From a virus: a stretch of 64,000 nt of DNA. Shown here one piece after another: positions 7,901 through 59,723 of the stretch. Both the position numbers and the translations under genes were made by a program. Location of the stretch: the IMG/VR virus record IMGVR_UViG_3300028127_000003, one strand, 5' to 3'. Below the pieces are notes generated by a model. It was not told the origin of the DNA. It saw nothing but the letters and a program-made list of their open reading frames with translations, and searched no databases. Positions within the stretch are counted from its first letter, which is position 1; each line of letters starts with the position of its first letter.

Positions 7901-7961
7901 GTGTTTTGTTTTATATTACTAATATAAGCAAAATTTCTGAGATAAAAAAATATTTCAGCAA

Positions 7962-37142: not shown

Positions 37143-37319
37143 CTATATATGCGTTTTGTTTACGGCTAATTTTTCTAATTTTGATTCTACTAGAATTATT
37201 AGATCTTCAATTCCTTCGTTATACGCGAATTGTGTTTCGTGGTCCATGTTTGCATACTTAATTTCATCTGCTGCATTGGTTAGTAGATTAACCAATACCT
37301 TTACGTCTTCTTTGCTCAT
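37143..37319 (-). CDS. small hypothetical protein missed by the ORF track (58 aa)
   Basis: Hand-translated MSKEDVKVLVNLLTNAADEIKYANMDHETQFAYNEGIEDLIILVESKLEKLAVNKTHI*. Confidence 0.7.
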   Translation of the reverse strand: MSKEDVKVLVNLLTNAADEIKYANMDHETQFAYNEGIEDLIILVESKLEKLAVNKTHI

Positions 37320-37326
37320 CTTTGTT

Positions 37327-38268
37327 TTATTTTAGTAAGTTTTCTATTCCTAATTCTTCGGCGAAAGCAACTGTGATATCCTTTAGCAGCTTTACATTTT
37401 CTTCTGAGAAATCAGTGTTATCAAATTTAAATGAAATTGTTTTATCATTTGCACCTGTGCTTTCTTTTACGAATTCAAAACCTGGAACTTTAGATTTTAT
37501 ACTATCAATTATCTTTCCTGTTTCATCTATGATTCTAGTAAGTCCATGATCTTTAACTAAATATCCTGATATTTTAATTCCAAGGTCATGGTTCTTTTGA
37601 TTAATAACCCATTCTATACCCAATCTAGAACCAGTATAAGCCTTTCCAATATAAAGGTATCTACTGCGGTGTGGTAATTCTTTTCTATTTTTGAATCCCA
37701 TTTCAGATGAAGCGACTTTCATCCATTTTAAACCAAGCTCTTCAAGCGAAGCGAGTTTAACTGAAACCTTTTCCTTCTTTTCTTCTATTCCATATACATC
37801 TGCAAAATAACCTTGATCATTGAACCTTAGATGTATAGCATAAGAATCTTCCATCTTAGAAAATTCATTAAGATAGGGTGCATCGAATTCTTTAAACGCA
37901 ATTGCAAATGAATATACTTGTTCGTAATCCTGTTTAAGTCTATTGGATTTAAGATAGAACTGTTCATGGTGATCATTGTCCCATTTACCCTTTTGAGATT
38001 GACTCATCACTTCAAAATAATACATCTGTCCTTCGTCTTCAAACGTAAGATCAGCTCTTTTGGTTGCCATTCCAATTGTGATAGGTGTTTCTAATTTTCT
38101 GTCTATATCTTCAATGCTGGATAAACCACATGCTTCGATTACAGTGTTCATTTCTTCTTTGCCAAAAAAGGCTTCTACGAATTGAGTTTCTCTATTACAT
38201 TCATAGGCTGAAAATACATCTGTTAATGTGTGGTCGTTGGTTTTAATTCCTTTCGAATATCTTTTCAT
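37327..38268 (-). CDS. PD-(D/E)XK-like nuclease-fold protein (DUF4268-associated type)
   Basis: RADLTF.D....YYFEVMSQ...DNDHHEQ resembles the D..IENQ...DH.H motif of NucS-like/DUF4268 proteins. Confidence 0.45.
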   Translation of the reverse strand: MKRYSKGIKTNDHTLTDVFSAYECNRETQFVEAFFGKEEMNTVIEACGLSSIEDIDRKLETPITIGMATKRADLTFEDEGQMYYFEVMSQSQKGKWDNDHHEQFYLKSNRLKQDYEQVYSFAIAFKEFDAPYLNEFSKMEDSYAIHLRFNDQGYFADVYGIEEKKEKVSVKLASLEELGLKWMKVASSEMGFKNRKELPHRSRYLYIGKAYTGSRLGIEWVINQKNHDLGIKISGYLVKDHGLTRIIDETGKIIDSIKSKVPGFEFVKESTGANDKTISFKFDNTDFSEENVKLLKDITVAFAEELGIENLLK

Positions 38269-40718: not shown

Positions 40719-42590
40719 TTACCAGCTAGCAGCCCATACAAATTCAAAGTTATGTTTCTTACAAAACTTTTCAATCATATCTGAAACCTTAGCTTGAGCA
40801 GCTTCGTACTTAGCGTAATCTCTTCCATCTATAATATTATAAGCGCTTTCTCCATATTCATCAGGATGTCTTAATTCTCTTGGCTCGTCAGTCTTATAAT
40901 AAACTTTCTTTTCAGCCGTTCTAATATAAGGCATTCTTAATTCTATTCTTCTATGTGCTTTTCTTCCGCTTGCCTTTGCGATGTCATATTGCTTTTCGAT
41001 TCTTGGCTTTAATCTAGTCCATTCGGCTAATATTTTATCATTAGCTTTAAAACCTGCTAGGATAGTTTTCATGTCAAATTCTACTCCGTTTACTCTTTTG
41101 TAATCTTTGAAAACTCCAACTACATCATCCATAAATTTATCAAAGCTAGAAATAGATTGATAAGAACCATGTACAGTTCCCATACCCCAATCATCTTCTA
41201 CCTTTCCAGTTGATACTTTTTTGGTTCCATTGAATAATTTTGCAAATGAATAATTAGGTTTACGCGTTGAGTTGTTAGACTGAAACTTAAATACTTCATG
41301 TTTCCATGATTTTCCTCGAAGCTCAATGCTCAAACATAAGTTACCTCCATAATTCCATTCTGATCTATAAACTCTACATTTGAATTGAATTTTTGGAAAT
41401 TCCTTTTTTAAACGTTCAGCCATTTGTAAACCATTACCGAAGTTAGATTCTCTTTTGTATGCTTCTTTACATTCTTTAGATTTTCTAGCAATAGCTAAAA
41501 CCTTACTTATTGTATAGTATGTTTCTGAATCGAATATTTCATCATCTGTTTCTTTATCTAAAATAACATCTTCATTAATAGATTTTAAATGAGTCAGTTT
41601 AGTGGATGTTGATTCTGCAAATGCTTCAATATCCCATTGGATTCTTTGCATTGGATCATCACCTCTAAAGTTTTTCTCAACCCAATCAATAAGACCTGGT
41701 TCGAATTGGGCGTTTTGTGCCATATCATAGGCATTCTTCCAACCGTCGTTTGATGCAACGTCTTCTAACCATTGGTCATATTTCCTTTGAGTCCATCTTA
41801 CTTTCTTAACAGCTTTCTTATGAGGACCAGCTCCTAATGTTGACTTTACAGTATTATAATGGTCTGGACCAGCAAATACGCCTTCTGCCCATTCTTGATC
41901 TCTTTTATTACCGTCCCAATATTTAATTTCTTTTCTGAATCTTCTTAGTGAATAATTACCACCTTCAATTTGTTTACGCTTTGTTACTTCTCCTTGTCTG
42001 TAACCTATTTCAATCTTCTTTTCTTCGGCAGTTTTAGGATCCATTTCAAAATGTAAAGATTTTACTAAATCTGCAATACCGTCAAACTTACCTTCATTAA
42101 CCGATTCTAAAATAATAGAATTTAGCTTTACTTCTTTATTAAATCTAGCGCTGCGTACATCGTCAGTTACTTCTAACTTAACACCATACATTGCAGTTAA
42201 TTTTACCTTTACTTTTTTACCATTATGTTCTGCTTCAAATTCTTTAAATGCATTTGCCTGTCGGCCATAATCCGTAATTTCATAGTTTCCATCTTCTGTA
42301 TCAAATATAGTACCGATGCTAATTTTATTAAGAACTCTTGCACCCATCATAGATATTTTAGAAGAAGATATTGTTTTACCTTCATCAAGTGATCCGAAAG
42401 ATTCAAATGATATAATGTTTTTCATTTCGCGTTGTTTCTTTTTATTTCTCTTCTTCTTATACTCTTCTTCGGCATCTCCTTTTCCGGCTGGAATATCCCC
42501 TGATCCAACTGATGTTTCAGATGGTAAAGAGACTTCTCCCATTCCGGCCATATCGCCAAGTGATAAGTTTTCGTTTTCGTTTAATTCCAT
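40719..42590 (-). CDS. putative internal head polyprotein
   Basis: GMG.V..P...GSGD N-module, internal MKNIISFESFGSLDE/G, linkers ESVNE/G and KSINE/D. Confidence 0.6.
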   Translation of the reverse strand: MELNENENLSLGDMAGMGEVSLPSETSVGSGDIPAGKGDAEEEYKKKRNKKKQREMKNIISFESFGSLDEGKTISSSKISMMGARVLNKISIGTIFDTEDGNYEITDYGRQANAFKEFEAEHNGKKVKVKLTAMYGVKLEVTDDVRSARFNKEVKLNSIILESVNEGKFDGIADLVKSLHFEMDPKTAEEKKIEIGYRQGEVTKRKQIEGGNYSLRRFRKEIKYWDGNKRDQEWAEGVFAGPDHYNTVKSTLGAGPHKKAVKKVRWTQRKYDQWLEDVASNDGWKNAYDMAQNAQFEPGLIDWVEKNFRGDDPMQRIQWDIEAFAESTSTKLTHLKSINEDVILDKETDDEIFDSETYYTISKVLAIARKSKECKEAYKRESNFGNGLQMAERLKKEFPKIQFKCRVYRSEWNYGGNLCLSIELRGKSWKHEVFKFQSNNSTRKPNYSFAKLFNGTKKVSTGKVEDDWGMGTVHGSYQSISSFDKFMDDVVGVFKDYKRVNGVEFDMKTILAGFKANDKILAEWTRLKPRIEKQYDIAKASGRKAHRRIELRMPYIRTAEKKVYYKTDEPRELRHPDEYGESAYNIIDGRDYAKYEAAQAKVSDMIEKFCKKHNFEFVWAASW

Positions 42591-42593
42591 ATC

Positions 42594-42911
42594 TTAATAT
42601 TCAAATGGTGGAGTTCCATAATCATCTTGTTCGATGCCATACCATACTCCTGATACTTGTAAATACCACCATCCATATTTAGTGTCGTCTACTACTTTAA
42701 ATTTCTTAGGTAATTTAACAGATTTTTTTGGAGCTCTAGCAATATACTTTAAAACTGGAACACCATCGTCCCATGTTTTTTTAGTAGATCTTGCTTGAAC
42801 TGATTGTCCATCTGAAAACGCATCAAATGCTTTTGCATCTTCTATTTCATCTGCTAATAAATCGATAGCTGATTCATTAATGTATTGTTCAAATAATTTT
42901 ACTTTTTTCAT
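42594..42911 (-). CDS. putative internal head protein
   Basis: N-terminus MKKVKLFEQYINE/S. Confidence 0.6.
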   Translation of the reverse strand: MKKVKLFEQYINESAIDLLADEIEDAKAFDAFSDGQSVQARSTKKTWDDGVPVLKYIARAPKKSVKLPKKFKVVDDTKYGWWYLQVSGVWYGIEQDDYGTPPFEY

Positions 42912-42912
42912 T

Positions 42913-44247
42913 TTACCAAACTATGTTTTTATTATCCCATTTAGCCATTCTTTGCTTAAGCTCTAGTGCTTTACGCTTAGCATCTCTCATATACCAAGAA
43001 CTTGATGAACCGAATTTTTCTTCTTCAGTTTTCATATTAACGTATGCTGAAACATATCCTTGATAATCTGACAATATATTTGCAATATAATTGGTTAAAT
43101 CTCTAGGTCTAATTTCTCTTCCTTTAGGGTCTTTTCCTATTGTTAATTCGTTATAGTTTCCTAATTCTTTTTTAGCTAAACCAGCCATTAAGAATTGGTG
43201 TGCATCTTCGATAATTTCTTTAACTTTCTTGTCTATTTTATCTGGGTTATCAGCTTTCTTCGCAAGAATATCGTTATACCTTGTTAAGTTATCCTCTTTG
43301 ATTTTCTTAGGGTTTGTAAGTGCAGTAGCTCCAGATTTTGCCTCTGCTCTTGCAGATGTCTTATCATCGGTAGATAAAGAAGCTCTTAATGTGTCTAAAT
43401 TAATAATGTAACATTCGTCAGACATTTCCGCAATTCTTTTAATGTTACCTAATCCCGTTCCACTATATTGGTTGTGTGATTTGTTAACACCGACAGTATC
43501 TTTAGATCCAGGGTATTTACCCATGTTCTTAAGTCTTCTTGTGTTTTTCTTACCACCTATTGTGTCGCTGTTTCTATTCCATATTGAATCGTTCTGAAAC
43601 ATTTCATTTTTTCCATTAGAAACAGCTAATAAACAATTTCCAGGAATCATTTCAACATATCTTCCGGAAGAAGGAGCATATTCATTTTCTTTTTCATTTC
43701 TAGAAATCCAAAATACAATTACGTTTCCGAATGTTTTTGCTTTCTTATAAACTTCAACTGGGTTGCTATTAGAAATTATCATATCATCGGTAACTTTATC
43801 TAGTGCTACTTTAGCAAGACCGTATATACCTTTAATTAATTCCTTACCACCTTTTTTGATGTCTATTAATCCTCTTAACTTGGAAGAAGCTAGAGCTTCA
43901 TTAAGTTCTAAAGATTCAGTTGCTCTGTATTTTGCAAATTTACCCTTTTTAATTGTTTTAACTAATTCAGCTTCGCTATCGTCCATGTGACCATATACAT
44001 CATTATGTGTTGCTGCGTTTACTATTTCACCAGCATCACCAATAAAATAAGTTCCTCCTGCATATTCGTCTCCATCCATATCTAGATCAAAACCACCGGA
44101 ATCTAATGAATTTTTAGAAATTGTGAATTCTTTTCCGTCTGCTTTTGAAAGAGCAGCTGCTAATTTTTTTGCTATTTTAGCAGTATCTTTCTGCTTCATA
44201 ACCTTTGCTTCATTGATAAAATTATCGAAGTTAGTATATAGTTTCAT
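42913..44247 (-). CDS. putative internal head polyprotein (two modules)
   Basis: MKLYTNFDNFINE/A and linker ESLELNE/A. Confidence 0.6.
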   Translation of the reverse strand: MKLYTNFDNFINEAKVMKQKDTAKIAKKLAAALSKADGKEFTISKNSLDSGGFDLDMDGDEYAGGTYFIGDAGEIVNAATHNDVYGHMDDSEAELVKTIKKGKFAKYRATESLELNEALASSKLRGLIDIKKGGKELIKGIYGLAKVALDKVTDDMIISNSNPVEVYKKAKTFGNVIVFWISRNEKENEYAPSSGRYVEMIPGNCLLAVSNGKNEMFQNDSIWNRNSDTIGGKKNTRRLKNMGKYPGSKDTVGVNKSHNQYSGTGLGNIKRIAEMSDECYIINLDTLRASLSTDDKTSARAEAKSGATALTNPKKIKEDNLTRYNDILAKKADNPDKIDKKVKEIIEDAHQFLMAGLAKKELGNYNELTIGKDPKGREIRPRDLTNYIANILSDYQGYVSAYVNMKTEEEKFGSSSSWYMRDAKRKALELKQRMAKWDNKNIVW

Positions 44248-44281
44248 TTTATATTGTTTTGTTTATAATAGTATATATCTT

Positions 44282-47200
44282 TTAATGTAAGGAATCATGT
44301 GCTAATTCATTAGCTAAGTCTGGATTATCATCTGTGAAATCTGATAATTCTTCGTCAGTCATTTCTTTTCCATTAGAATATTCACCATAACTAAAGAATG
44401 CATCTGTGAAATCTGGATAATCTTTCATATCAACATCTTCCATTTCTAATGAACTAATATCTACTTTCTTTCCTTTAAATTTAATATAATTAGCTTCGTT
44501 AATAAAAGATTCTAATGTTAAACTAACAACTGGTTTAATTCCAGTTAATATTCTTTTTCCAAATTTAGAAAGACCAATTCCATTTTCACTTACTGTAAAG
44601 TATTTAGAATTTCTTCTCATCCATCTTTTATTATCGATTGATTTTTCTTTTAGAATATTATTGAATTCTTCTTCTGTTAATACACCATCCGCTAATGCCT
44701 CGATCATTGCGTTTCTGACTTTAGCAGTTCTACCTGAAGTTTGTGCAGGATGATTATCGGTATATCTTCTTTTTATTTGAATTTTAGATTCTCTAAGACC
44801 CGGTTTCATTACGTTTAATTCCCACCACTGTTCTAATTGGTGATAAATATTTGCACCCATGTTTGAAATCATGAAGTCAATTACATCATCATAATTGTCT
44901 TTTTCATCTTGATAAAAACCAGGAGTATCGATATATTCTTTACCCATTATCTTTCTAACTGCTCTTTCTGGCATAGCATCGATTTCTTTTAAAAATTCTT
45001 CGAAATCTTCATCGTTTTTAAAACCCTTAGCTTCAATAACCATTGATTCCATTAGGCCAATAGCAATCTCTCCAACTTCTCTATCGCCGCCGTCAACATA
45101 TCTTTTGTTAAGTATTGCAAATTTAAAACCATCTGCTTTTATCGTATACATTGGCATCATACTATCACTATAGTCGTATTTGTATTTACCTGCTTTTAAT
45201 TCTTTACCGATTGCAAAGAAATCTTTAGCTTTACCTACTAAATCTGCAAGATTATCTAAGTGGTCACCGGCGTCGTCCTTTTCATTAACTAATGATTCAT
45301 AAACTCCTTTTTCAATGTTCTTGATTAAGAGTTTAGCACCCTTCTTGTCAAGTTCATTTTGAATAAAGTCCATCATTTCGTTGGGATCTTCAGCATCTAT
45401 ACCAAATTCAGATGCTAAGTTTTGATATGCATCAAATTCCATATTAGAAATAGTGTCTTCTAAGTCTGCATACACATCTTCATTAACTGCTGATTCTACC
45501 ATTACTAGCCCTATATCCTTATATGCTATTTCATGCTCTCCACCGTCTTGATCTAGTGCAAATACTGATTTATCATGCCACATTGCAGCATTGTCATCGT
45601 TATTAGAATCAGGATTATAAATGATATATTCTTTTCCGTTTCCGGTTTGAATCATTGCATCATCTGCATCTCCTAATTTTTTTAATAATGACTTTTTAGT
45701 ATACCTTTCTTCAACAGCTTCACCTGACGTATATTCAAAATCATTATATAGTGCCTTTAACCATTCTAAAAACTCTGGAGTTTTCTTCATTACTTTCTTA
45801 TGTCCGTATTCTTTAAAGAATTCTTTCTGAAAAGTATCAAATGATTTGTGATTACCTATCATTTGGTGAATGTCAGACATAACACCCTCACTGATAACTA
45901 ATTTTACATCTTTGTTTTTACCAGCTACTGCATCATCTAGTTCATTTGTAAGAGCTTTCTTTTTTGCTGTTAAATCTATTAGCTGCTGTCTAGTTGCTGC
46001 TTTCTCATCACTTCCATCTTCCGCAGCGATGTATATCTTTACAATATCTTTCATCTTATTAACTGTTTCTCCAAATTCCTTTGAAATCTTGTTAATAGAT
46101 CTAGCTTCTAATATATTAGATTCTTCAATGTATTCTCCTAATTCAGGATCGTCCCATCCATTAGGATCGGCTAATACTGATTGTAAATCTTCTCTTGAAC
46201 CTGTCATTTCAACTTCTGGCCAATTGCCACCAGGGCCGTTCATTGTTAAAACTTTCATTTTAACATTATATTTCTTTAAAAGCTTTTTGAGTGTTTTTGA
46301 TTTAGGATCTATTGCATCCATTACTACAGTAGCTTCATTTAAATTTTCGTCTAGCTTATCAAAGAATCCACCATGTTCACTTTGTAAATCTTCACCATAC
46401 TTGTCGTCCCATATTTTAGCTAATTCATCTTTAGTAATTTTACCTTTATATTTTCCCATGATTTCAACATAGACACTACCATATTCATATTCAAAATCTT
46501 CACCATAAGAAAAATCCCATGCCTTTTCAACATCTTTAATTGTAAGCTTTTTGGCTTCAGTAACCTTTGATTCATACCATCCGTTTTCGTAATCGTCATC
46601 ATCTTCATAATCATCATACTCAGGTTCTTGATACCATGATTGATTTGGATCAGATTCTGCTTCTTCAGTAAAGTCATGTCTTTTCCAATTAAATCTTGGA
46701 TCTTCAACTAATGCAGGGAATAATGTCTTTTTCTTTTTATCTTTGGTCTTTATTTTACCGAATGCTAAATCAATACCAAGTTGTCTTAATTCTTTAAATG
46801 AACCTTTCATTGTTTTAACATCTTCTTCAGTATATCCATTCATTGTAGCAACAAGATCATAATAATCCATTCCACCAAATTCACCATATCCTTCATAATC
46901 CTTTTCCGTCCACTTGTTACCCATATTATCATACATAAATACTGTAATCATGTTCTGTCTTTCAGAACCTATTTGTGTGTTTGTATCGGATGTAAGCCAT
47001 GAAAATTGACCTTCAACTATCATCTGTTCATGTAACAATTGAGCACCAGTCGTTACAATGTTTAAATAGCTTTCAGGAATTCCATTTACAAAGTTATGTA
47101 ATTCTGGTTCGAAATCTGGCATACCACATGCATATCTTGGATATGTTGCTCCTTCTGTATTTACAAGAATACTCATTCCATAATACTCTCCAAGCTCACC

Positions 47201-47500
47201 TGATTCAGTGTTACAATATAATACAAATACCTGTGGCACTTGAACTTTAAAGTTAGATTGTAATGGATATTCGTTATGACATCCTAATTCTTTAGTAGTG
47301 TATACGTCTAAGGAATGTAATTCTTTATCATATTTAGTTAATTCTCTATATGGAATAGAAGCTCTTTGGTTAAATAGATCTCCCCAATAAGAAGGCTTTC
47401 TCAAGGAATATTTCCCAGAAACCTTTTTGTATACTTTATATAAATCAACGTTTTCGTTCATTGAATTTACAAAGCTTTCGAATGTTTTTTTAGTGCTCAT
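44282..47500 (-). CDS. putative internal head polyprotein (about 10 modules)
   Basis: MSTKKTFESFVNSMNE/N plus repeated linkers ESKVTE, ENLNE, ESNILE, ESAVNE, ESLVNE, ESMVIE, ESFINE. Confidence 0.6.
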   Translation of the reverse strand: MSTKKTFESFVNSMNENVDLYKVYKKVSGKYSLRKPSYWGDLFNQRASIPYRELTKYDKELHSLDVYTTKELGCHNEYPLQSNFKVQVPQVFVLYCNTESGELGEYYGMSILVNTEGATYPRYACGMPDFEPELHNFVNGIPESYLNIVTTGAQLLHEQMIVEGQFSWLTSDTNTQIGSERQNMITVFMYDNMGNKWTEKDYEGYGEFGGMDYYDLVATMNGYTEEDVKTMKGSFKELRQLGIDLAFGKIKTKDKKKKTLFPALVEDPRFNWKRHDFTEEAESDPNQSWYQEPEYDDYEDDDDYENGWYESKVTEAKKLTIKDVEKAWDFSYGEDFEYEYGSVYVEIMGKYKGKITKDELAKIWDDKYGEDLQSEHGGFFDKLDENLNEATVVMDAIDPKSKTLKKLLKKYNVKMKVLTMNGPGGNWPEVEMTGSREDLQSVLADPNGWDDPELGEYIEESNILEARSINKISKEFGETVNKMKDIVKIYIAAEDGSDEKAATRQQLIDLTAKKKALTNELDDAVAGKNKDVKLVISEGVMSDIHQMIGNHKSFDTFQKEFFKEYGHKKVMKKTPEFLEWLKALYNDFEYTSGEAVEERYTKKSLLKKLGDADDAMIQTGNGKEYIIYNPDSNNDDNAAMWHDKSVFALDQDGGEHEIAYKDIGLVMVESAVNEDVYADLEDTISNMEFDAYQNLASEFGIDAEDPNEMMDFIQNELDKKGAKLLIKNIEKGVYESLVNEKDDAGDHLDNLADLVGKAKDFFAIGKELKAGKYKYDYSDSMMPMYTIKADGFKFAILNKRYVDGGDREVGEIAIGLMESMVIEAKGFKNDEDFEEFLKEIDAMPERAVRKIMGKEYIDTPGFYQDEKDNYDDVIDFMISNMGANIYHQLEQWWELNVMKPGLRESKIQIKRRYTDNHPAQTSGRTAKVRNAMIEALADGVLTEEEFNNILKEKSIDNKRWMRRNSKYFTVSENGIGLSKFGKRILTGIKPVVSLTLESFINEANYIKFKGKKVDISSLEMEDVDMKDYPDFTDAFFSYGEYSNGKEMTDEELSDFTDDNPDLANELAHDSLH

Positions 47501-47520
47501 TTTTATTTGTATTTGTTTAT

Positions 47521-48600
47521 TTAAACTCGGTTAGGCTTTATTTTATATTTAAATTTACCTTGTGTAATAGAATATATTTGTAATTCGCTAGTTTTTCCAG
47601 GTAATTTCTTGTAATAGTGAAAAGCTACTATTTCATGATCTTTAGACTCTATAAAAAGGAATGGAGTAGGTATATCTCCTACTGCTGAAATTACATCGTC
47701 TTGTATTTCAGTAAATGTTCTAACGGAAGGCTCAGTCTCTATTATACTTTTAATTTTTTCTGCAGTTTTAGAGTCACTTAGCTTTCCTAATTCTACGTCA
47801 TTAAATTTAATTACTAATGCGCCGTTATCTTTATCTCCAGGACCTATTTTAAAATCTCTTTCACTAGAAGAAAGGGCCTGAATATCTGTCTTAGTTAAAT
47901 TTTGAATATGCTTAAATCTTTTTCCACCTACAGTTCCCCATTCATTTATCCAACCTCCACCGGCAGCCATATCTTTACCATCTCCGTCCGGGTTGATTTC
48001 TTCAATATTATATTTTACTGCGTCATATAATGCCGTTAACTTCGGTACATAAGTACTATTAATTCCCTGGTGTTTTGCACCTGTTCTCCAATTTTGTAAC
48101 ATGCCCTTTGACATTTGAGCTTCTTTTAACTCACATTTACCAAGGGGTGGTTTAATTGGTGACCACCTTTCATTATATAATTCTAAGTCAGTATCGGCCG
48201 CACCTCCACCTATTTTTATATTTTCTACAATATACGCTAGCATTATTTCTCCAGCACCAATTCCATTATCGTCTCTTCCAATATTAAACAATTCGTTTGC
48301 TTCGCTTTTATTTAACATTAAATATTGAAAAACTACTCCGAATGTATCGTCATCCATTTTAGAAAGCCATAACCTGCCATCAGGTTGTTGTTTAACATCC
48401 TGTGTTGAAGTAAACTTAACACCTTGCCATGGACACTTATTCTTTTTAAATGTTCTATTAATTGAATTAAATAAATTCTGTTGGGCAGATTTACTTCCGG
48501 TCGTTGCAACTCCAATATAGGATTCTATAATTAACGCTTCATTTTCAGCGTTGGTTTTTGCAGCACTATGTAGTGCTCTTTCAAAATCGTACCTATCCAT
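47521..48600 (-). CDS. putative PD-(D/E)XK endonuclease
   Basis: GAGEIMLAY...GGGAADTDLEL...CELK pattern; N-terminal linker ALIIE/S. Confidence 0.5.
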   Translation of the reverse strand: MDRYDFERALHSAAKTNAENEALIIESYIGVATTGSKSAQQNLFNSINRTFKKNKCPWQGVKFTSTQDVKQQPDGRLWLSKMDDDTFGVVFQYLMLNKSEANELFNIGRDDNGIGAGEIMLAYIVENIKIGGGAADTDLELYNERWSPIKPPLGKCELKEAQMSKGMLQNWRTGAKHQGINSTYVPKLTALYDAVKYNIEEINPDGDGKDMAAGGGWINEWGTVGGKRFKHIQNLTKTDIQALSSSERDFKIGPGDKDNGALVIKFNDVELGKLSDSKTAEKIKSIIETEPSVRTFTEIQDDVISAVGDIPTPFLFIESKDHEIVAFHYYKKLPGKTSELQIYSITQGKFKYKIKPNRV

Positions 48601-50464
48601 TGTTTTCTAAAAATTGTTTAAATGTTAATAATGATTCAGCAACTTCATTTGATTCTGAAGTACCTACTGAATCTTCTAATTTTTTCTTAAGTTCGCCATA
48701 CATTTTATGTAATGCTTTGGGTGTTGTTGACTTAAATAATCCTTCATCTCCGTCTAGCATTGCGTTTCTAACCTGAGTCGCTGAAATATTATTGTCTGTT
48801 CTTGGAATTTCAAATAATCCAAAATCACTCCTAACTCCAAGATCTTCTCTATAAGAATCTTTATTTACTTGGAATCCGTAAGTTTTCATTCTATCGCTTC
48901 CTGTTCCCCATAATACGGGTTCATAAGTTGGTCTCATTGCATTGAACATTGTATCAATACCTCCGGTTGGAATTACAAAGATTTCTTTTAAGAATGGATA
49001 TTGTTTTTGAACCGCCTTAAACATATCTAATTGTGTCTTCTCATCATAAGGTCTTTTAAATGCATCTTCCTTTTTCTTATTCTTTGCTTTTACTAATAAA
49101 ACAACCACAGGATATCCATTTTCTTTGTGTATAGTTTCTAATACTTTAGCATGTCCAAGTGTAAATGGTTGGAATCTACCAACAAACATATTTACTAATT
49201 CTCCTCCTTGTTCAGGATGATCTACTTTAAGTGCTTCATTTAAATTAACACTTGTCTTTACTTTATTATGTAATATGAAATTATTAAAGTCGTATATGGA
49301 ATTTTCATCGGTATTCTCTACAAATACTTTCTTATCTATAGTTTCTACTATTTGATTTAAATGCTCTAACATTTCTGCATTTATGATATCGCTTTCCTTG
49401 CTTCTCTTTTTTCTAAAAGAACCTAAAGTTATTTTAAATAATTCTGCAAGTATTTCGTTTTCAACATAAGAAAGAGTGGTCTCGTTCTTAATGTATTTAG
49501 TATTTAGTTTAAAGGAATCTGAATCTGCAAAATCAGCTGATTCAAAGTTAACACCAATAAACTTAGCAGAGTGTTCTTTAACATACGTATTAAACATCAC
49601 TGACATTAATTCAATATATCTCCAGTCTGCTGTTTCTTCATTTAGTTGAATGTCTTTCATTTCAAATGTAGAAATAAATTCAATAAGACCAGCAATAGTA
49701 ATTTGATACATGTGGCTTGATCTCTTATTTTCACTAACAGTTCTTGTAAAATCTTCTAATTTAAAAGATCTAGATTTTTTCTCATCAATAAAAGAAACTA
49801 TTAATCCGTCAATTTCTACTTCAAAGTCTTCATTTAACGTAGGAGAAACTGCATTTGGATTAAATGTCTTAATCATCTTTTGAGTGAAAGGTAATCTTGC
49901 ATCTGTATTTGGATCATAATCAAATGCTTCAGAAAACTCCTTATCTGACATAGATAAAACACTTATTAATTCTTCTTTTTGCATTTGAGATAGCATACCA
50001 TCAAACACAATGCTAGGTCCTTGAACCTCTAATATCTTTGCCCATTTATTTAATATAATTGGATCGCTAATTGTTTTTCTAATCTTACCTGACTCATTCA
50101 TAGTTTGAATGTGCGTAAGTATTAAATTGTTTTTAGGTAGTTTAGTATATTTATATTCTGACACGTTTAATTCAGGTAAATATTCAAAACCAAATTTCCA
50201 ATCATGTGGCATTTGTTCCTTTATACTAGGATCTAAACTTTGGATGTGCTTGACACCTGTTTCATATAAACCTACTATTGTTCTGTCTATCATGTTCATT
50301 CTAGAATCTCCAGATTTGTAATATTCAAATTTAGTCTGGTTTCTTCTAACGTGAAATGAAGCTCCTTGTATTTTTTCAGTTACTAGAACCCTGCTATTCA
50401 ACATATCTTGAAATGCATTGATATTAGTTTCCTGAAATACTTGTCTTAGTTTTTTAAGTGCCAT
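48593..50464 (-). CDS. RNA-ligase-fold nucleotidyltransferase fused to a (T/H)xGH nucleotidyltransferase
   Basis: TEKIQG (motif I), DGLIV...FKL (motifs IV/V); C-terminal FVGRFQPFTLGH...GSDR...ISATQVR. Confidence 0.7.
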   Translation of the reverse strand: MALKKLRQVFQETNINAFQDMLNSRVLVTEKIQGASFHVRRNQTKFEYYKSGDSRMNMIDRTIVGLYETGVKHIQSLDPSIKEQMPHDWKFGFEYLPELNVSEYKYTKLPKNNLILTHIQTMNESGKIRKTISDPIILNKWAKILEVQGPSIVFDGMLSQMQKEELISVLSMSDKEFSEAFDYDPNTDARLPFTQKMIKTFNPNAVSPTLNEDFEVEIDGLIVSFIDEKKSRSFKLEDFTRTVSENKRSSHMYQITIAGLIEFISTFEMKDIQLNEETADWRYIELMSVMFNTYVKEHSAKFIGVNFESADFADSDSFKLNTKYIKNETTLSYVENEILAELFKITLGSFRKKRSKESDIINAEMLEHLNQIVETIDKKVFVENTDENSIYDFNNFILHNKVKTSVNLNEALKVDHPEQGGELVNMFVGRFQPFTLGHAKVLETIHKENGYPVVVLLVKAKNKKKEDAFKRPYDEKTQLDMFKAVQKQYPFLKEIFVIPTGGIDTMFNAMRPTYEPVLWGTGSDRMKTYGFQVNKDSYREDLGVRSDFGLFEIPRTDNNISATQVRNAMLDGDEGLFKSTTPKALHKMYGELKKKLEDSVGTSESNEVAESLLTFKQFLENNG

Positions 50465-50474
50465 ATTATATTAT

Positions 50475-51845
50475 TTATCTTCCGTACTTTATGATTCCCA
50501 TCAGCTGATTGATAGCAGCAAAAGTACCTGTTAGTTTCATAGTCTTTCCTTTATATACAAAAACTATTCCTTCAGTTGGTATGATAGATTCTACTCCTCC
50601 AATTCTATCTAATCTCTCTAGTTCTTTCATTACCTTTTCGATCTGAGTAACGCTTCCATCTTTTTTGATCTTTTCAGATTCTGATCTAATTTGATTATGT
50701 AGTCTTTGCATCTCTTTGTCTGGATTTGCAGCTACAAAATTAGAAGCATTCATAAGAATTATAGACCCTAGTTCTAAAAATAAATCTTCAAACGGTCTAA
50801 TGTTTTCTTTATATTTCTTTTTAACATCTTCTTTGTCAAATTTCTTAACAGAAGCAGCTTCATCTTTTCCTATCTCCTTTGCAAGTGATCTCATATTTAA
50901 AGACTTTTTATCTCCATAAGCCCATCTTAATAATAAACCTTCCTTATAGTCTTGTTGTAAATCTGGGAAATTTGCATCTATTGTTTCTCTCCACCACATT
51001 TCATGATATCTAGAAACTTCGTCACCGTCTGTTAAGTTATAACGATCTCTTAATTTTTCAATCTGCTTTATAAATTTAGCTTGATTTTTATCAAAATTAA
51101 TATCTTTACCTAGTTTTAAAATCTGAGGAGGAATTATTGTAAATGTCTTTTGAACATCGGCATCTACTTCCTTTAAAGCTTTGACTAATTCTCCTGCTAT
51201 TTTTCTAGATCCTGTAATATTACCATTCCCATCAGTTTCTTGAATATCGTGAAATTGAAGAACATCTCTTTCGTAATAGATTACATTTGGGTTTTTAGAA
51301 TAGATTAATTCTATATTTATAAAATCTTTACCGTCATTAAATATGGACTGATCTTTAATTTTTGGAAGAGCTTCATTTAGATCTTTAGCTGCAAACACGT
51401 ATGTTTCTCGCACTAAAGGTACCTCATGCTTTTCAAACATTTCTATAATACCGTCTAAATCAACGGGACTAATTAATTGACCTTTATTTCTAGAAAACAT
51501 CGTAACTCCGTTTTTTACGGTTGCTAATAGATTTTGACCGTCTGTTTTTTCAGTGGCTACCTCTTCAAAGTTTAATTCTCCTTGAAGACCGGACGTTACG
51601 ATCTTTTTAAAATCTGCGAATGTTAAATCTTTTTCATCGAAAGGATGAGACATGTGACCAGCTGCACCGCCTTCTAAGATTAATTCTTCTTTAAGTGTAT
51701 TGTATTTTTCAACGATATATTCGTCAAATGATAAAACTTTACTCTTATTTTCACTCATATAATGTGCAACATATTCCTCTCTGGTCATGCCTTGTGCATC
51801 TGCGTGATGTTGAATAAAATCTACAAAGTTGTTATTTAGTTCCAT
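50475..51845 (-). CDS. ligase-fold (covalent nucleotidyltransferase) protein
   Basis: GHMSHPFD, TEKTDGQN (KxDG), RNKG, EGIV...KLTG. Confidence 0.6.
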   Translation of the reverse strand: MELNNNFVDFIQHHADAQGMTREEYVAHYMSENKSKVLSFDEYIVEKYNTLKEELILEGGAAGHMSHPFDEKDLTFADFKKIVTSGLQGELNFEEVATEKTDGQNLLATVKNGVTMFSRNKGQLISPVDLDGIIEMFEKHEVPLVRETYVFAAKDLNEALPKIKDQSIFNDGKDFINIELIYSKNPNVIYYERDVLQFHDIQETDGNGNITGSRKIAGELVKALKEVDADVQKTFTIIPPQILKLGKDINFDKNQAKFIKQIEKLRDRYNLTDGDEVSRYHEMWWRETIDANFPDLQQDYKEGLLLRWAYGDKKSLNMRSLAKEIGKDEAASVKKFDKEDVKKKYKENIRPFEDLFLELGSIILMNASNFVAANPDKEMQRLHNQIRSESEKIKKDGSVTQIEKVMKELERLDRIGGVESIIPTEGIVFVYKGKTMKLTGTFAAINQLMGIIKYGR

Positions 51846-51864
51846 GTATATAGCTAATATAATT

Positions 51865-51898
51865 AAAAAACTTGACCCGGAAAAATCCAGGTCAGTTT
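51865..51898 (-). terminator. intrinsic terminator overlapping a promoter
   Basis: TGACCTGGA-tttt-TCCGGGTCA followed by AG and T6 on the minus strand. Confidence 0.75.
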
Positions 51899-51912
51899 AT
51901 TTTTATTTTTTA

Positions 51913-54039
51913 TTATAAATATCTATCGATAAATTCTTCTTTGCTACCAACAAATGATCTAGTCTTTGGGCCGAAAAGAACAATCTCAGCACCTTCTGAT
52001 TTAAGCCAATCTGCAACTTTTTGAGCTTTTTTCTTATCAGCTGATAACCATACTGTGTCAAATTCAGGACCATGAGACCTTTGCATTACAATACCTCCTT
52101 TTTCATTTGTAAATTTAAACTTATCTCCAAGAGCAACACTTACTTTAATATTTTTATCAAAATTCTTTTTATGATTCTTAAAAGAATATGCTAAAGCACC
52201 TGAGTAACTTTTAGTGTCAGTTGTAAATTCATCTAAAGATGTAGTAGTACCTTCATAAATATTTGATTCAAATGCTGGAACTAATCCAGTTTCTCCGTAG
52301 ATATCTGCCATCATCCATTTTTTAGAACCTTCATCCCATAAATAAACGAATTCTGCACCACCTTCGTAATTTGCATCTTTAATATATTTGTTAATATTCT
52401 TAACATTACCTTTCATCAGATTAACATCTCCGCCATAGAAATTAATTTTCTTAACGTCTTTATCTAAACCTGAATTATCTCCATTTTTAAGAACAAAATC
52501 TACATTTTTACCACTTTTAAAGGTTGATTTAATAATAGGCAACATGTTTTCAGGATATGAATCATAGTGAGTATATACTGAAGTAATATTTCCTTTCTTG
52601 TCTATTTTACCAAATTGACCTCTAGTTCCTTCATTAATTACATAATTGATTACTTCGTTAAATTTAGATTCTTTTAAAGAAATTTCTTCTTCAGTTAATT
52701 GAAACTTAACTGATTCTTCTACTGCGTTAAATCCTGCTAATAATTTTTCAGCAAGTTTAGATTCACCAATAGATTCTAAATATAGAGCAGTGCCTTCAGC
52801 AACTCCAATACCTGACCATCCGGCAGCATTTGAAATTCTAGAATAATACTCATCTAATATCTGTGATATTTTCTTTGCTCCTACTATAATAGCTTGTTTA
52901 CCAAGAGTTAAAGGATTAACAGTAACACTTCCTAATCTTCCTTTGATAATTTTTTCAGTAGCTGTTCTTTCTCTATGGAAATTAGCATCAGTTAATGCTT
53001 CAGCGTAAATATATTTAATAGCTCCTAAGTGAGAAATTTTATCAGCTGTTAAGCTTCCTAGTTCTGCAAATATTTTATTGTATTGAGTTAATACTTTCTT
53101 TGCATCTCTTTTATATTTAATATCTAAGGCCTCATTCATTAATGATTCTCCTAATCCCCAGTAATTTGCGTGATCGTATTCAACTGGGAATATACCTAAA
53201 TCACCTTCATCACCTTCTTCACTTTTAACAATTTTAGCAAGATAGTAATCTCCCTTTGCAGTATCTTCATATCCGTATGAATCTGCATCTGATCCCATTT
53301 CTTTTTTAAATTGCTTTGATATCTTTCTCCAATTATCGATAGCGATTATTTCAACTTCGCTTCCAATTGAATTTTCAGTAGTATCTCCTACTTTAAATTT
53401 AGCTTTTTCAGTAACTAAAGATTCTGAAAATTCTTCAATATGTTCCATATCGATTTCATCTTCTCCCTTTAATTCTTTTTGTACTTCTTTAGACTTTACT
53501 AATTTTGAAAGATCTTTCATAGTGATTTCTCCATCAATGAAGTCAGCTAGTATATAGTATTGATTAGAAGAATATCCTTCACTGTCTCTAAAATCACCAA
53601 TTTCTTCAATTGCTGCTTTAGTAACGGTCTTAGCTTCAGTAACTAAAGATTCGCTTAATGAATTTCTTAGACCACAGTGTACGCATTCTACCGTTCCGTC
53701 CTTGTCAATTTGCTTATATAAATGTCCTTTTTTATTAGTACACTTTGGTTCGTCTGATTCAGTAACTTCTTCTGATGCAGTAACATCTTCTACCTCTACT
53801 TCTATTTCAGCTATTTCTTCTTCTGAAACATCTCCAAATATTTTTGAGATAATTGATTCTTTCTGATCTTCTTCTAAACCTTCGAAAGAAGTTAATCCTA
53901 ATTCATCTAGAATAGCAGCTATTTTACCAACTGATTCTTGTCTTTTTAAATTGTTTTCTTCTCTAAGTTTACTAACAGATTCCTGTTTTCTAATCTCTGT
54001 AAACGATTTAAATGAAGAAATTTTATTAACTTGTGCCAT
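51913..54039 (-). CDS. putative internal head polyprotein
   Basis: KISSFKSFTE start; linkers EEVTE, ESLVTE x2, ESLMNE, YVINE, ESNIYE; contains a CxxC Zn-ribbon-like module and a TRGQ...SVYTHYDSYP module. Confidence 0.6.
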   Translation of the reverse strand: MAQVNKISSFKSFTEIRKQESVSKLREENNLKRQESVGKIAAILDELGLTSFEGLEEDQKESIISKIFGDVSEEEIAEIEVEVEDVTASEEVTESDEPKCTNKKGHLYKQIDKDGTVECVHCGLRNSLSESLVTEAKTVTKAAIEEIGDFRDSEGYSSNQYYILADFIDGEITMKDLSKLVKSKEVQKELKGEDEIDMEHIEEFSESLVTEKAKFKVGDTTENSIGSEVEIIAIDNWRKISKQFKKEMGSDADSYGYEDTAKGDYYLAKIVKSEEGDEGDLGIFPVEYDHANYWGLGESLMNEALDIKYKRDAKKVLTQYNKIFAELGSLTADKISHLGAIKYIYAEALTDANFHRERTATEKIIKGRLGSVTVNPLTLGKQAIIVGAKKISQILDEYYSRISNAAGWSGIGVAEGTALYLESIGESKLAEKLLAGFNAVEESVKFQLTEEEISLKESKFNEVINYVINEGTRGQFGKIDKKGNITSVYTHYDSYPENMLPIIKSTFKSGKNVDFVLKNGDNSGLDKDVKKINFYGGDVNLMKGNVKNINKYIKDANYEGGAEFVYLWDEGSKKWMMADIYGETGLVPAFESNIYEGTTTSLDEFTTDTKSYSGALAYSFKNHKKNFDKNIKVSVALGDKFKFTNEKGGIVMQRSHGPEFDTVWLSADKKKAQKVADWLKSEGAEIVLFGPKTRSFVGSKEEFIDRYL

Positions 54040-54072: not shown

Positions 54073-55581
54073 CTATATATCTCCGTCAAATTTGACTTTC
54101 TTAATACTATACTCAAATTTCTCTTGTTTATAAATTTTCTGCCTCGCCTTACTATGTTTATATAAATAGTTATCCCATTCGTCAGTTCTAATGTCATCCA
54201 CAAAATCGACAATTAATACAGCTTCTTTAGACTCATGCTGCCTTAGACCTCTACCAATTGACTGCCTGATGATCACCTCGGACTTAAATGACTCTGTAAA
54301 GAATATATTGTGTATTTTCTTAATGGAAATTCCAGTAGAAAATGTACCATAACTCGCTACAATAACTACTTCATCTCCTGCTTCCATTTTCTTTTTATAT
54401 TCTTCTCTAATATCTTTATCTGTTCCTCCATCTACATAAAAAACTCTTTTATCTGAGTTTTGGCGGAGCTGTTCGTATATTTTTTTACCATGTTCTATTC
54501 TATGAAACAGAACTAGAGAGTTCCTAGGGACCTTGCCAACAACATTACATATAAAATTAAGTCTACCAAAAGAATTAATAATATAATTTTGTTCCAGTTG
54601 AAAAACATCCTTCCTATCATACTTATTAAATGCTAATTCTTCAAATGCTTTTTTGGCGGAATCAGGTGCGTAATTCATTTCAATTACTTTTACTTTACAT
54701 TTAGCGATGTGACCCTGACTCTGTAAAAATGCAGCCTTAACTTCGCTAATTACAGGACCCGTTTGACTCATTAGTGTTAACTTGTCTAAAGATCCATCTT
54801 TAGGAATTGTACCCGATAAACCATATTTATATTGTGCACTTGTACATTTTTGTAATATAGTCTTAATAGAATTAGATTTCGCTTTATGAGTTTCATCTAC
54901 AATAACAGCATCGAACTGTTGAAAATATTCTTTAGGCTTTTTAACTAAGGACTGATATGTACCTATCACTACATTCCTGTCTGACTTTATTTTCTGGCCG
55001 GCATATATCTGTTGTATCTTTAGTTTTATTCTATTCTTATTATTGTATTCGTGGAAATCTTCATGGGCCTGAACAACTAGAGAAACATTAGGAACTATAA
55101 ATAATATCTTTTCGGCCTTTTCTTTTTCTAACATATACGCCACTGTTAAAAAACTAATAAGTGTTTTCCCAGCGGAAGTTGCTAATTCAGCTAAACATCT
55201 CCTAAACTTTAGGATATTAAATGCTGTTTCTATTTGATAATCCCTTGGAACAAATTTACTACCCTCAAAAAATTCTAAAGCCCATGCTTCAAATGATTCT
55301 GCACCTATGTTTCTATCAAATAGTCTTTGAATTCCATTAAGTTTAAGATCAAACTTATATTCCTTGCAAATGAGCATAACGTATCTCCAAAGACCGGCGG
55401 GAATCCACTTATCGTCTTTGATGTATGAAACATATCCGTCCCATATTCCTTTCTTGACTAAAGGATTAAATCTCCAACTATCAATTCTTTTAGTTAAAGA
55501 TATTTTAATCTGCTCTAGTTCAAGTTCCTCTGCTTCATCAATTCGTAAGAATTGATTATCATCTGTTAGAGTTAAAATCAA
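54073..55581 (-). CDS. uvsW: SF2 DNA helicase
   Basis: ATSAGKT, IVDETH, GLSGT, FSTGISI, QSIGRGLR. Confidence 0.93.
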   Translation of the reverse strand: MILTLTDDNQFLRIDEAEELELEQIKISLTKRIDSWRFNPLVKKGIWDGYVSYIKDDKWIPAGLWRYVMLICKEYKFDLKLNGIQRLFDRNIGAESFEAWALEFFEGSKFVPRDYQIETAFNILKFRRCLAELATSAGKTLISFLTVAYMLEKEKAEKILFIVPNVSLVVQAHEDFHEYNNKNRIKLKIQQIYAGQKIKSDRNVVIGTYQSLVKKPKEYFQQFDAVIVDETHKAKSNSIKTILQKCTSAQYKYGLSGTIPKDGSLDKLTLMSQTGPVISEVKAAFLQSQGHIAKCKVKVIEMNYAPDSAKKAFEELAFNKYDRKDVFQLEQNYIINSFGRLNFICNVVGKVPRNSLVLFHRIEHGKKIYEQLRQNSDKRVFYVDGGTDKDIREEYKKKMEAGDEVVIVASYGTFSTGISIKKIHNIFFTESFKSEVIIRQSIGRGLRQHESKEAVLIVDFVDDIRTDEWDNYLYKHSKARQKIYKQEKFEYSIKKVKFDGDI

Positions 55582-58684: not shown

Positions 58685-59380
58685 CTATTCCTCAGTGGCC
58701 GACATCTTTGCTCTAACGAAGTGAGTTAAAAAGTAAGCGTCAACTAAATCGTCAAAGGGTTTTGGTATTTTTTTAGAAGGTCCAATTTCTTTCACACAAA
58801 AATCTAAAAGAGGATGTTCTGCTAAAATTTGATCTCCTAATACATTACTTAAAAAGGCATCCCATAATTGAGACTTATTCATGTTTCCTTTTCCAGCGTG
58901 TTTCTTAATTGTAGTGGGAGCAATGGTTTGAATATCTAAGATTTCAAGTTGACTTAGCATTCTTTCTTTAAGTATCGCAGCTCCTGCAGCCATATCTATA
59001 ATATTATTAGTTCCCATTTTAGAACCGAAAGAAGTTCCTTCAAAAGAAATAATATATTGCTTCTTTGTTTTTGTAATATCCGTTATTAAATTAATAATGT
59101 CATCTGCGGTTTTAGCGTATCTCTTTATCTTTGCTAATTCAACGCTTGAATAATCTTCACCATGTTTTCCCCAGTCAGGTTGATTAATAAGAGTAACTCC
59201 CTTTAAATGAGATATGTCTTCTTGCCAAGCTCTTTCTTTCTTGGTTCCTTGACCTTCTTTAATATAAGATATGAAATGATATTCGTTAGTTTCTTCTTGG
59301 TATATAAAAATACCTGGAGAATTTAATGAAAAGTCTACTGATACGTAATTCAAATTAGAATGATTTTCCGATAGCCGCAC
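58685..59380 (-). CDS. RuvC-like Holliday junction resolvase
   Basis: VDFSLNSPG, FEG.SFGS, KKHAGKGN..K, DLVDAY; the true start may lie a few codons downstream. Confidence 0.75.
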   Translation of the reverse strand: MRLSENHSNLNYVSVDFSLNSPGIFIYQEETNEYHFISYIKEGQGTKKERAWQEDISHLKGVTLINQPDWGKHGEDYSSVELAKIKRYAKTADDIINLITDITKTKKQYIISFEGTSFGSKMGTNNIIDMAAGAAILKERMLSQLEILDIQTIAPTTIKKHAGKGNMNKSQLWDAFLSNVLGDQILAEHPLLDFCVKEIGPSKKIPKPFDDLVDAYFLTHFVRAKMSATEE

Positions 59381-59723
59381 CTAATCCAGCGCCAACTAAT
59401 CTTGAGGTTAATAAATCGTAAAAAATACCTTTCTGAATTCCTAGAACTTTAGCAACTGTTTTACCAATTGTTTTACCTAGAGCAAATCCTGTAAGGCCAC
59501 CAAATATAGAACCTAAGAAACCTTCATTTGTTAATTCCTCATTAAATCTTTCAAAATCAAACGTTCCATCTTCATTTGCATACTGTCTAGTAAATTCTTC
59601 TAAAGCAGCATCTACTTTTTGCTCTAATTCATCAGTCCATTCTGACTGCAGAGATTCTTCTAAAAGGGTAATTTCCTCTTTAGTTATATTCTCTTCGCTT
59701 AAGTATTCAAAAAATGTTTTCAT
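59355..59723 (-). CDS. putative internal head protein with glycine-zipper membrane segments
   Basis: MKTFFEYLSE/E start, LTNE/G linker, then GFLGSIFGGLTGFALG...GAGLGAAIG. Confidence 0.6.
   Translation of the reverse strand: MKTFFEYLSEENITKEEITLLEESLQSEWTDELEQKVDAALEEFTRQYANEDGTFDFERFNEELTNEGFLGSIFGGLTGFALGKTIGKTVAKVLGIQKGIFYDLLTSRLVGAGLGAAIGKSF

Follow-up and report, generated by a model that had tools for sequence, protein, structure and literature searches.

We analysed a 64,000-nucleotide stretch of viral DNA (hereafter the window) from the IMG/VR record IMGVR_UViG_3300028127_000003 and concentrated on positions 40,719 to 54,039, where several open reading frames (ORFs) open with a short T4-like leader, the tag, and where the long ones are divided into small modules by a recurrent linker. 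These tagged genes probably encode cargo polyproteins that are targeted to the prohead and cut there in trans by the gp21-like protease of the same phage. The window lies on the reverse strand of a 178,737-bp IMG/VR virus contig with a G+C content of ~32% and a CheckV completeness estimate of ~59%, and nearly all genes are on the minus strand of the window. A single base, at position 31155, differs between the window and the contig copy. The phage is an uncultured marine one, and its membership of the T4 superfamily is evident from a gp23-type major capsid protein (MCP), a gp21-type protease, and head genes in T4 order (portal, gp2-like end protector, gp4-like head-closure protein, and TerL). 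The database phages nearest by MCP are an uncultured 462-kb phage (52% identity), Lak phages, Tenacibaculum phage PTm1, and Sphingomonas phage PAU. The flagged range holds the following eight ORFs:

51913-54039, minus strand: 708-aa tagged polyprotein; tag at residues 1-15 (53995-54039, MAQVNKISSFKSFTE); predicted cuts, from strict linkers and homology-block borders, after residues 94, 135, 211, 303, 442, 462/470, and 596; PHROG 1987 module at residues 471-596.
50475-51845, minus strand: 456-aa ligase-type nucleotidyltransferase-like protein; EKTDG at residue 99; tag-like segment at residues 30-46 (51708-51758).
48593-50464, minus strand: untagged 623-aa ORF; EKIQG at residue 30; NMN-adenylyltransferase-like C-terminal domain.
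47521-48600, minus strand: untagged 359-aa ORF, of the same length across relatives.
44282-47500, minus strand: 1072-aa tagged polyprotein; tag at residues 1-16 (47453-47500), then twelve modules; predicted cuts after residues 163, 315, 389, 465, 538, 598, 674, 740, 823, 904, and 1002.
47012-47452, 46556-47011, 46334-46555, 46106-46333, 45887-46105, and 45707-45886, minus strand: first six modules of the 1072-aa ORF.
45479-45706, 45281-45478, 45032-45280, 44789-45031, 44495-44788, and 44285-44494, minus strand: last six modules of the 1072-aa ORF.
42913-44247, minus strand: 444-aa tagged protein; tag MKLYTNFDNFINE (44209-44247), N-terminal module, linker, 327-residue C-terminal domain.
43897-43917, minus strand: the linker ESLELNE of the 444-aa protein (residues 111-117).
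42594-42911, minus strand: 105-aa single-module tagged protein; tag MKKVKLFEQYINE (42873-42911); conserved in relatives.
40719-42590, minus strand: 623-aa protein; conserved 55-residue N-terminal extension, internal tag MKNIISFESFGSLDE (residues 56-70, 42381-42425), then modules.

A plus-strand ORF at 45870-46472 was dismissed as a low-complexity antisense frame within the 1072-aa gene.

The tag spans ~10-16 residues and has the form Met-Lys, a hydrophobic residue at position 4, an aromatic residue at position 7, and an ending [LIV]-[NS]-E. It occupies the true N-terminus in four ORFs (44282-47500, 42913-44247, 42594-42911, and 51913-54039) and is internal in two (from Met56 of 40719-42590 and at residues 30-46 of 50475-51845), and the motif peptides that the original prediction had quoted for most ORFs of this range are thereby accounted for in six of the eight. 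The flagged range is not a uniform array of cargo genes, as ORFs 47521-48600 and 48593-50464 carry no tag and the products of 48593-50464 and 50475-51845 are ligase-like. Across the whole contig, the strict 7-mer [FY][EDNKQ]x[FYW][ILV][NST]E starts at residue 7-8 in seven ORFs and at just two internal positions among 53,000, and the T4-register pattern (hydrophobic at 4, aromatic at 7, [LIVMF]-x-E) is met at 9 of 200 N-termini against 1.5 expected; additional ORFs fit the tag in a shifted register. With ~17 tagged ORFs in the contig, ~10 of them outside 40719-54039, the tag is a trait of the whole genome and not of the flagged range alone. The same applies to the "dozens" of products that had been proposed, which would be reached over the whole contig (~17 tagged genes, ~40 modules) and not by the flagged range alone. 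The leader ends seen (INE, LNE, LSE, MNE, FTE, and LDE) read as candidate gp21-type sites resembling [LI]-x-E.

In T4, the capsid-targeting sequence (CTS) is the textbook route for loading non-structural proteins into the phage head. Its sequence is MKTYQEFIAE (PMC8442874), in which residues 4 and 7 serve targeting and residues 8 and 10 serve processing (PMC9026906). ORF 59355-59723 of the window starts with MKTFFEYLSE, which is near the T4 sequence. Outside the window, a 317-aa ORF (G000:C1:32205-33158) with the canonical tag MKQIQSFNQFINE gives sub-threshold matches to several ATP-grasp families and is a possible packaged enzyme. A DNA ligase gene (G000 174421-175713) was dropped as tagged cargo, its start MKELKLTQEFVNE resembling an ordinary ligase N-terminus such as that of the T4 ligase.

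The strict linker ES-x-[LVIMF]-x-E is found six times in the 1072-aa ORF (0.14 expected) and six times in the 708-aa ORF (0.18 expected), the expectations being derived from residue shuffles, of which 0 of 2000 gave the observed count in either ORF. Its density is 6.7 per 1000 residues in the two long ORFs vs. 0.11 elsewhere in the contig (six in the other 54,000 residues), a difference of ~60-fold. If relaxed sites are included, i.e., [LIVM]-x-E coinciding with homology-block borders, the 1072-aa ORF has 12 (13 pieces, the tag and 12 modules) and the 708-aa ORF has ~8. The recurrent ES-type linkers that had been reported for these two ORFs are therefore real and are far denser there than in the rest of the genome.

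Homology searches place the linkers at the borders of exchangeable units. The 1072-aa protein, searched against 1.8 billion cluster representatives, has 1944 related clusters (803 at E <= 1e-10), and single stretches of it match at very different positions in proteins of 170-1270 residues, most of which have tag-like starts. The ends of 310 phmmer domains cluster at residues 156-163, 296-320, 381-390, 456-470, 531-540, 586-600, 671-675, 731-740, 816-825, 901-905, and 986-1005 of the 1072-aa ORF, and every one of these clusters contains [LIVM]-x-E; the corresponding block borders of the 708-aa ORF are 94, 135, 211, 303, 442, 462-470, and 596. Over all pairs, 53% of internal BLAST high-scoring segment pair starts fall within 8 residues of a predicted site vs. 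15% of random positions. For a motif-independent logo, we anchored 75 distinct contexts on GQFSW, the conserved start of the second module of the 1072-aa ORF (M2). Counting back from the border, Glu occupies the last position (P1) in 75/75 and Leu, Ile, or Val the third (P3) in 75/75, with Asn or Thr at P2 in 65/75. This rule holds with either the leader or another module upstream, and the same tripeptide rule is found ahead of five unrelated modules. The linkers are true module borders. Single-linkage clustering of the modules over-merged them and serves as illustration only.

We then compared 15 IMG/VR loci that contain relatives of the 1072-aa gene. At these loci, 94-100% identity and a constant size are seen for the helicase, the 359-aa ORF, and the downstream genes; the tagged genes beside them are highly divergent in length, with sizes of 832, 740, 590, 528, and 525 aa for the 708-aa ORF; 1111, 987, 875, and 703 aa for the 1072-aa ORF; 609, 508, and 448 aa for the 444-aa ORF; and 682, 668, 523, 468, and 380 aa for the tagged 623-aa ORF 40719-42590. 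In the alignments, whole modules are inserted, lost, or replaced exactly at the linkers, and this comparison of module content among related genomes, suggested in the original prediction, came out in favor of linkers as module borders. Modules also move between genes: a module of the 708-aa protein of the window lies inside a 1072-type gene in loci L009 and L014, and the N-terminal module of the 444-aa protein lies inside a polyprotein in L015. In L017, the 703-aa ORF consists of the leader, module 11, module 9, and the 327-residue C-terminal domain of the 444-aa protein, a domain that ends many other polyproteins as well. Such hypervariable cargo in near-identical phages is understandable because the same short site bounds each module, so that shuffling would keep both loading and release.

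M2 is the most widespread module, and it was followed in structure models:

46556-47011, minus strand: module M2, residues 164-315 of the 1072-aa ORF.

Its conserved sequence (69 clusters) is GQFSW...LFPAL.EDP.FNWKRHDF. An alignment of 70 sequences with 54-79% identity to M2 gave an AlphaFold2 model with a mean predicted local distance difference test score (pLDDT) of 79.6 and a tail (residues 127-152) below 50; as modelled, M2 would be a folded core of ~126 residues followed by a disordered acidic tail that carries the terminal linker ESKVTE. Strong sites of the form [LIV][NTS]E are depleted inside the core (3 vs. 13.7 expected in 69 cores). The M2 model has no match in Foldseek searches of PDB and BFVD or in VIA-wide (best Z 2.2), the M2 alignment as a profile query against PDB returned nothing below E = 0.047, and the ESM Atlas gave no usable match for the modules. 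The AlphaFold2 model of the whole 1072-aa protein is poor, with a pLDDT of 44.6; the dips within its better part (318-668), at 454-467, 527-539, 589-598, and 669-688, coincide with linker positions. Fold resemblances in this model (an Hfq/Sm-like barrel at residues 599-668, a winged-helix-like segment at 922-990, and a generic helical hairpin at 464-530) are to be taken as leads only. In the 708-aa ORF, a Cys/His-rich module of 41 residues (residues 95-135, 53635-53757) lies between two linkers; with three Cys and one His arranged as C...H...CxxC, it may be a small zinc-binding unit.

The protease that would cut these proteins, and its expected substrates, are encoded in the head operon of the window:

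12577-14637, minus strand: gp21-type prohead protease fused to an acidic coiled-coil scaffold; protease at residues 1-167 (14137-14637).
10982-12421, minus strand: gp23-type MCP (PF07068, E 1.6e-46).
14700-15068, minus strand: 122-aa tagged ORF, N-terminus MKHLKTFKNYSNLTE, between the portal and protease genes, i.e., in the gp67/gp68 slot of T4.
9476-10861, minus strand: 461-aa tagged ORF, N-terminus MKTFEQWYNSTKKADSIDE, directly after the MCP gene; no family match.

The protease domain scores 41.6 bits with PF03420 (curated cut-off 27) and matches gp21 of 1230 phage records. In the alignment with RB49-type gp21, its LGELDHP is paired with LGELNHP and its ISSRAAG with VSSRGLG; His73 and Ser128/129 of these two motifs are presumably catalytic. 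A V-x-E/S at the end of the domain is common to the window protein and RB49-type gp21. The scaffold part is long, acidic, and repeat-rich, with five (E/N)Y[LV]AE repeats and a basic tail (...YD...AKRFKK). The fusion protein is predicted to cut itself at RVNE167/S and at VESVNE659/A (12661-12678), the latter freeing the conserved basic C-terminal tail. Ahead of this tail, by 25-30 residues, 79 relatives keep MEK..[LIVM]-x-E/[ASGK], an arrangement expected of a scaffold release site.

The MCP carries ...IIESATGINE/AEK, so the site ESATGINE/A cited in the original prediction is indeed there, at residues 19-26, and it is the sole N-terminal candidate cut (ESATGINE26/A; residues 1-26, 12344-12421). 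Among 80 relatives (L027-L106), 79 keep LINE at residue 7 and/or G[IV][NT]E at 26 in a complementary pattern: the window type has LINS with GINE, most others have LINE with GIND, and LINE7 is lost only where GINE26 is present; one locus with an odd start has neither site. T4 gp21 reportedly cuts after Glu in a short motif, and Asp at the cut position of the CTS blocks processing (PMC9026906). From the protease family, the scaffold site, and the MCP site, the cut rule is therefore expected to be [LIV]-x-E, the very tripeptide at the tag ends and at the module joints.

Promoter-like boxes point to late expression of several tagged genes. The motif [AG]ATATATA, which differs from the T4 late box TATAAATA, occurs 52 times on the gene strand vs. 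7 times on the other strand, mostly 12-50 nt before head, tail, baseplate, and tagged genes:

54081-54088, minus strand: late-promoter-like box GATATATA; the 708-aa gene follows 42 nt downstream.
44279, minus strand: late-box copy heading the run of the 444-, 105-, and 623-aa genes (the last being 40719-42590).
14670, 15083 (122-aa ORF), 16727, and 10902 (461-aa ORF), minus strand: other late-box copies.

Late-type boxes are thus found on two of the three transcription units of the range. The 708-aa gene ends in a strong terminator (51894-51873). The run 51845-44282, comprising the 456-, 623-, and 359-aa ORFs and then the 1072-aa gene, comes after the terminator and has an early-like box at its start. 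A long, near-invariant upstream element, TTTTTTTATCTCAG...TTTTGCTTATATTAGTATAGTAAT, stands before about a dozen genes (at ~37270-37330, ~7900-7960, and ~ten other places) and is presumably an early promoter; a degenerate copy of it follows the terminator, before ORF 50475-51845.

The members of this run are of different kinds. EKTDG of the 456-aa protein and EKIQG of the untagged 623-aa protein are presumably equivalent to the lysine motif of ligase-type nucleotidyltransferases; the ligase-like parts had no profile match in Pfam or NCBIfam, and ORF 50475-51845 had no sequence match in PDB either. The adjacent ORFs in 48593-51845 may form an RNA-repair or nucleotide-transfer cassette, to judge from these motifs. 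The L017 orthologue of the 456-aa ORF (68% identical) starts directly with the tag MKIYTNFTEFLNE, and because of this the enzyme-like protein encoded by 50475-51845 may be cargo too. ORFs 47521-48600 and 48593-50464 are outside the cargo set. As for the other tagged genes, the single-module ORF 42594-42911 would fit a T4-like layout with one cut. The N-terminal extension of ORF 40719-42590 (residues 13-39, 42474-42554, DMAGMGEVSLPSETSVGSGD) is closely like the N-arm of the MCP (IYGMGNVSLPSATADGSGD, at MCP residues ~57-78, ~12190-12250), with no third copy in the contig, and it may offer a second docking route to a partner of the MCP. Searches of the range ORFs against Pfam, PHROGs, and NCBIfam gave only two PHROGs without assigned function and one sub-threshold domain of unknown function. 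On the tagged range ORFs, the same three collections gave no conflict domain of the ART, ArdC, MPTase, or nuclease type and no family match for an embedded peptidase, although distant folds could escape such a search.

Taken together, we propose the following course of events. The leader would dock the precursor onto the scaffold core during assembly of the surrounding gp23-type shell. The scaffold-fused gp21-type protease would then cut after Glu at exposed (E-S)-x-[LIVMF]-x-E sites, which would remove the leader and separate 2-12 independently folding modules per precursor; the same protease would trim the N-terminus of the MCP and set the scaffold free. Once separated, the modules would remain inside the head and exit with the DNA at infection, which is the least certain step. 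Packaging, cleavage, ejection, and a role in host takeover or anti-defence are what we infer for the tagged genes. A bolder version, which we hold as a tentative idea with the odds somewhat against it, is a plug-in delivery system in which any small protein behind a CTS-like leader or an (E-S)-x-[LIV]-[NT]-E joint is loaded, released, and injected. In that case, some 40 different proteins from ~17 genes, including the ligase-type nucleotidyltransferase, the ATP-grasp-like protein, and M2, would be delivered by a single virion, and the uniform joint itself would enable fast shuffling of cargo between genes and phages.

Several observations weigh against the cargo polyprotein proposal. Its main internal weakness is the enzyme run with an early-like box ahead of the 1072-aa gene, for which a perfect late box was not found, the nearest candidate being the AT-rich TAAATATAAAATA ~45 nt upstream. 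The modules (7-18 kDa) are mostly acidic (isoelectric point 4-5.5), vs. the basic internal proteins (IPs) of T4. In this respect, the T4 parallel drawn by the original prediction fails; it stands for the gp21-family protease, the T4 head-gene order, the tags in CTS register, and the common [LIV]-x-E. No effector or anti-defence domain was recognised in any module by Pfam, PHROGs, or NCBIfam, or for M2 by Foldseek and VIA-wide, and a tblastn search of 50,697 phage records found the modules in no cultured phage of that collection. The nearest database phage, LR756500.1, has GIDN at the MCP position equivalent to GINE. Several linkers are predicted to be helical in the low-confidence model of the whole 1072-aa protein. 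Loose tag matches include false positives, because one tag-like start was read as a DNA-ligase N-terminus.

Among other explanations, the one that fares best accepts that the pieces are loaded and cut and assigns them a structural fate, as a scaffold extension, as an inner-body-like filler with a role in organising or pressurising the DNA, or as expelled peptides, and not as injected effectors. There is precedent in phiKZ and SPN3US, in which the prohead protease cuts many abundant internal proteins of the inner body or bolus and propeptides have multiple sites (PMC9026906, PMC10052503); the acidic modules moreover resemble the internal peptides retained in T4 and not the basic IPs, and the missing effector domains point the same way. 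Set against this, hypervariable modules beside genes of 94-100% identity would be unusual for a structural part; variation of this kind typifies conflict genes, the T4 ip loci being an example (PMC12373910). The modules are also independently folded, conserved, and mobile, and some tagged proteins are enzyme-like (ligase-type and ATP-grasp-like). We regard a structural fate as unlikely.

According to another explanation, the long ORFs are uncut beads on a string, and the linker is either a structural joint, for example a helix cap, or a short stretch of homology favoring recombination between cassettes. The predicted helicity of several linkers would suit the joint. Shuffling exactly at the linkers would suit recombination, as would the Ser codon of the linker, which is TCA or TCT in 18/18 of the motif matches listed vs. 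68% genome-wide and hints at sameness at the nucleotide level. However, P1 Glu and P3 Leu/Ile/Val are the only invariant features while P2, P4, and the codons vary, which is indicative of the gp21 rule and not of a DNA repeat. Besides, an identical tripeptide closes the tags and the conserved MCP and scaffold sites, and the depletion of strong sites within the M2 core does not fit a mere joint either, which makes uncut chains improbable. A further alternative is that the tag and linkers serve a machine other than the prohead, with processing in the cytoplasm; examples would be a phage Clp protease working through adaptors, a protease of the host, or a signal for another compartment. We consider this very improbable. 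In its favor, no clear late box precedes the 1072-aa gene or the ligase-like ORF. Against it, the site is that of the conserved MCP and scaffold maturation sites of the clade, the tag is in the T4 CTS register, the gp67/68 slot of the head operon is occupied by a tagged ORF, and Clp proteases act by processive degradation and not by cutting at defined tripeptides.

If the cargo polyprotein proposal is true, the one-tag-one-protein scheme would be extended to a polyprotein scheme, and the head protease would double as the releaser of a large and fast-changing payload. The tag and the joint would provide a sequence rule with which injected proteins could be found in metagenomic phages that lack a cultured host. 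Thousands of small domains (1944 clusters for one gene) would become candidate factors for host takeover and counter-defence in the first minute of infection, and the arrangement would be a natural design for loading multiple proteins into T4-type capsids.

In our literature search, we found no description of CTS-led multi-module precursors with uniform joints, and the system shares different features with several known ones. In the herpesvirus assemblin/scaffold, with its M-site, and in phage protease-scaffold fusions, the release site is C-terminal; ORF 12577-14637 is likewise a protease-scaffold fusion with a conserved site before a basic tail, a likeness that concerns the enzyme and not the cargo and that serves here to read the site rule of the protease. 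With the polyvalent proteins (Iyer et al., 2017; PMC5512222), the polyproteins share large size and unrelated, shuffled domains (2-15 in polyvalent proteins), and polyvalent proteins are proposed to enter along with the incoming DNA and to be broken up into active fragments (PMC5512222). Polyvalent proteins, however, have recognisable conflict domains and usually embedded peptidases (e.g., zincin-like MPTase) for self-processing, neither of which was found in our family searches of the tagged range ORFs; here, an N-terminal CTS-like tag would provide for loading, and the head-maturation protease would free the modules in trans by cutting at a uniform short linker.

In phiKZ, 201phi2-1, and SPN3US (gp175/gp245; PMC9026906, PMC10052503, PMC7411985), the gp21-related protease cuts after Glu in many proteins of the head interior, and the packaged DNA is accompanied by a large mass of protein. 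The three-residue motif and the possibility of several sites per protein are common to those phages and to the tagged genes, for which cutting is predicted. The motif of phiKZ and SPN3US is S/A/G-x-E, whereas P3 is Leu, Ile, or Val here (75/75 before M2, and likewise at other borders), as in T4. Where proteins of those phages have multiple sites, these are located in N-terminal propeptides whose removal leaves one mature fragment, whereas those of the polyproteins lie between conserved, folded, and mobile modules. At the sequence level, homology to phiKZ-like head proteins was not found, with no PHROG or Pfam match and no tblastn match in the 50,697 phage records.

The leaders of T4 IPI, IPII, IPIII, and Alt (PMC9026906, PMC8442874, PMC3012670, PMC12373910) share the register of the tag and its [LI]-x-E ending, and T4 and the present phage have in common a gp21-family protease, the order of the head genes, unrelated bodies behind a common leader, and hypervariable loci; T4 Ip1-3 are specific inhibitors of host restriction enzymes (PMC12373910). 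No sequence similarity to the T4 IPs was detected. The T4 IPs are single small basic proteins with one cut beside the CTS (PMC8442874), whereas here up to 12 mostly acidic modules would follow one leader, each with a further candidate site. The linker, too, is extended here to E-S-x-[LIV]-[NT]-E, unlike in T4, and the tagged genes number ~17 on a partial contig vs. a handful in T4.

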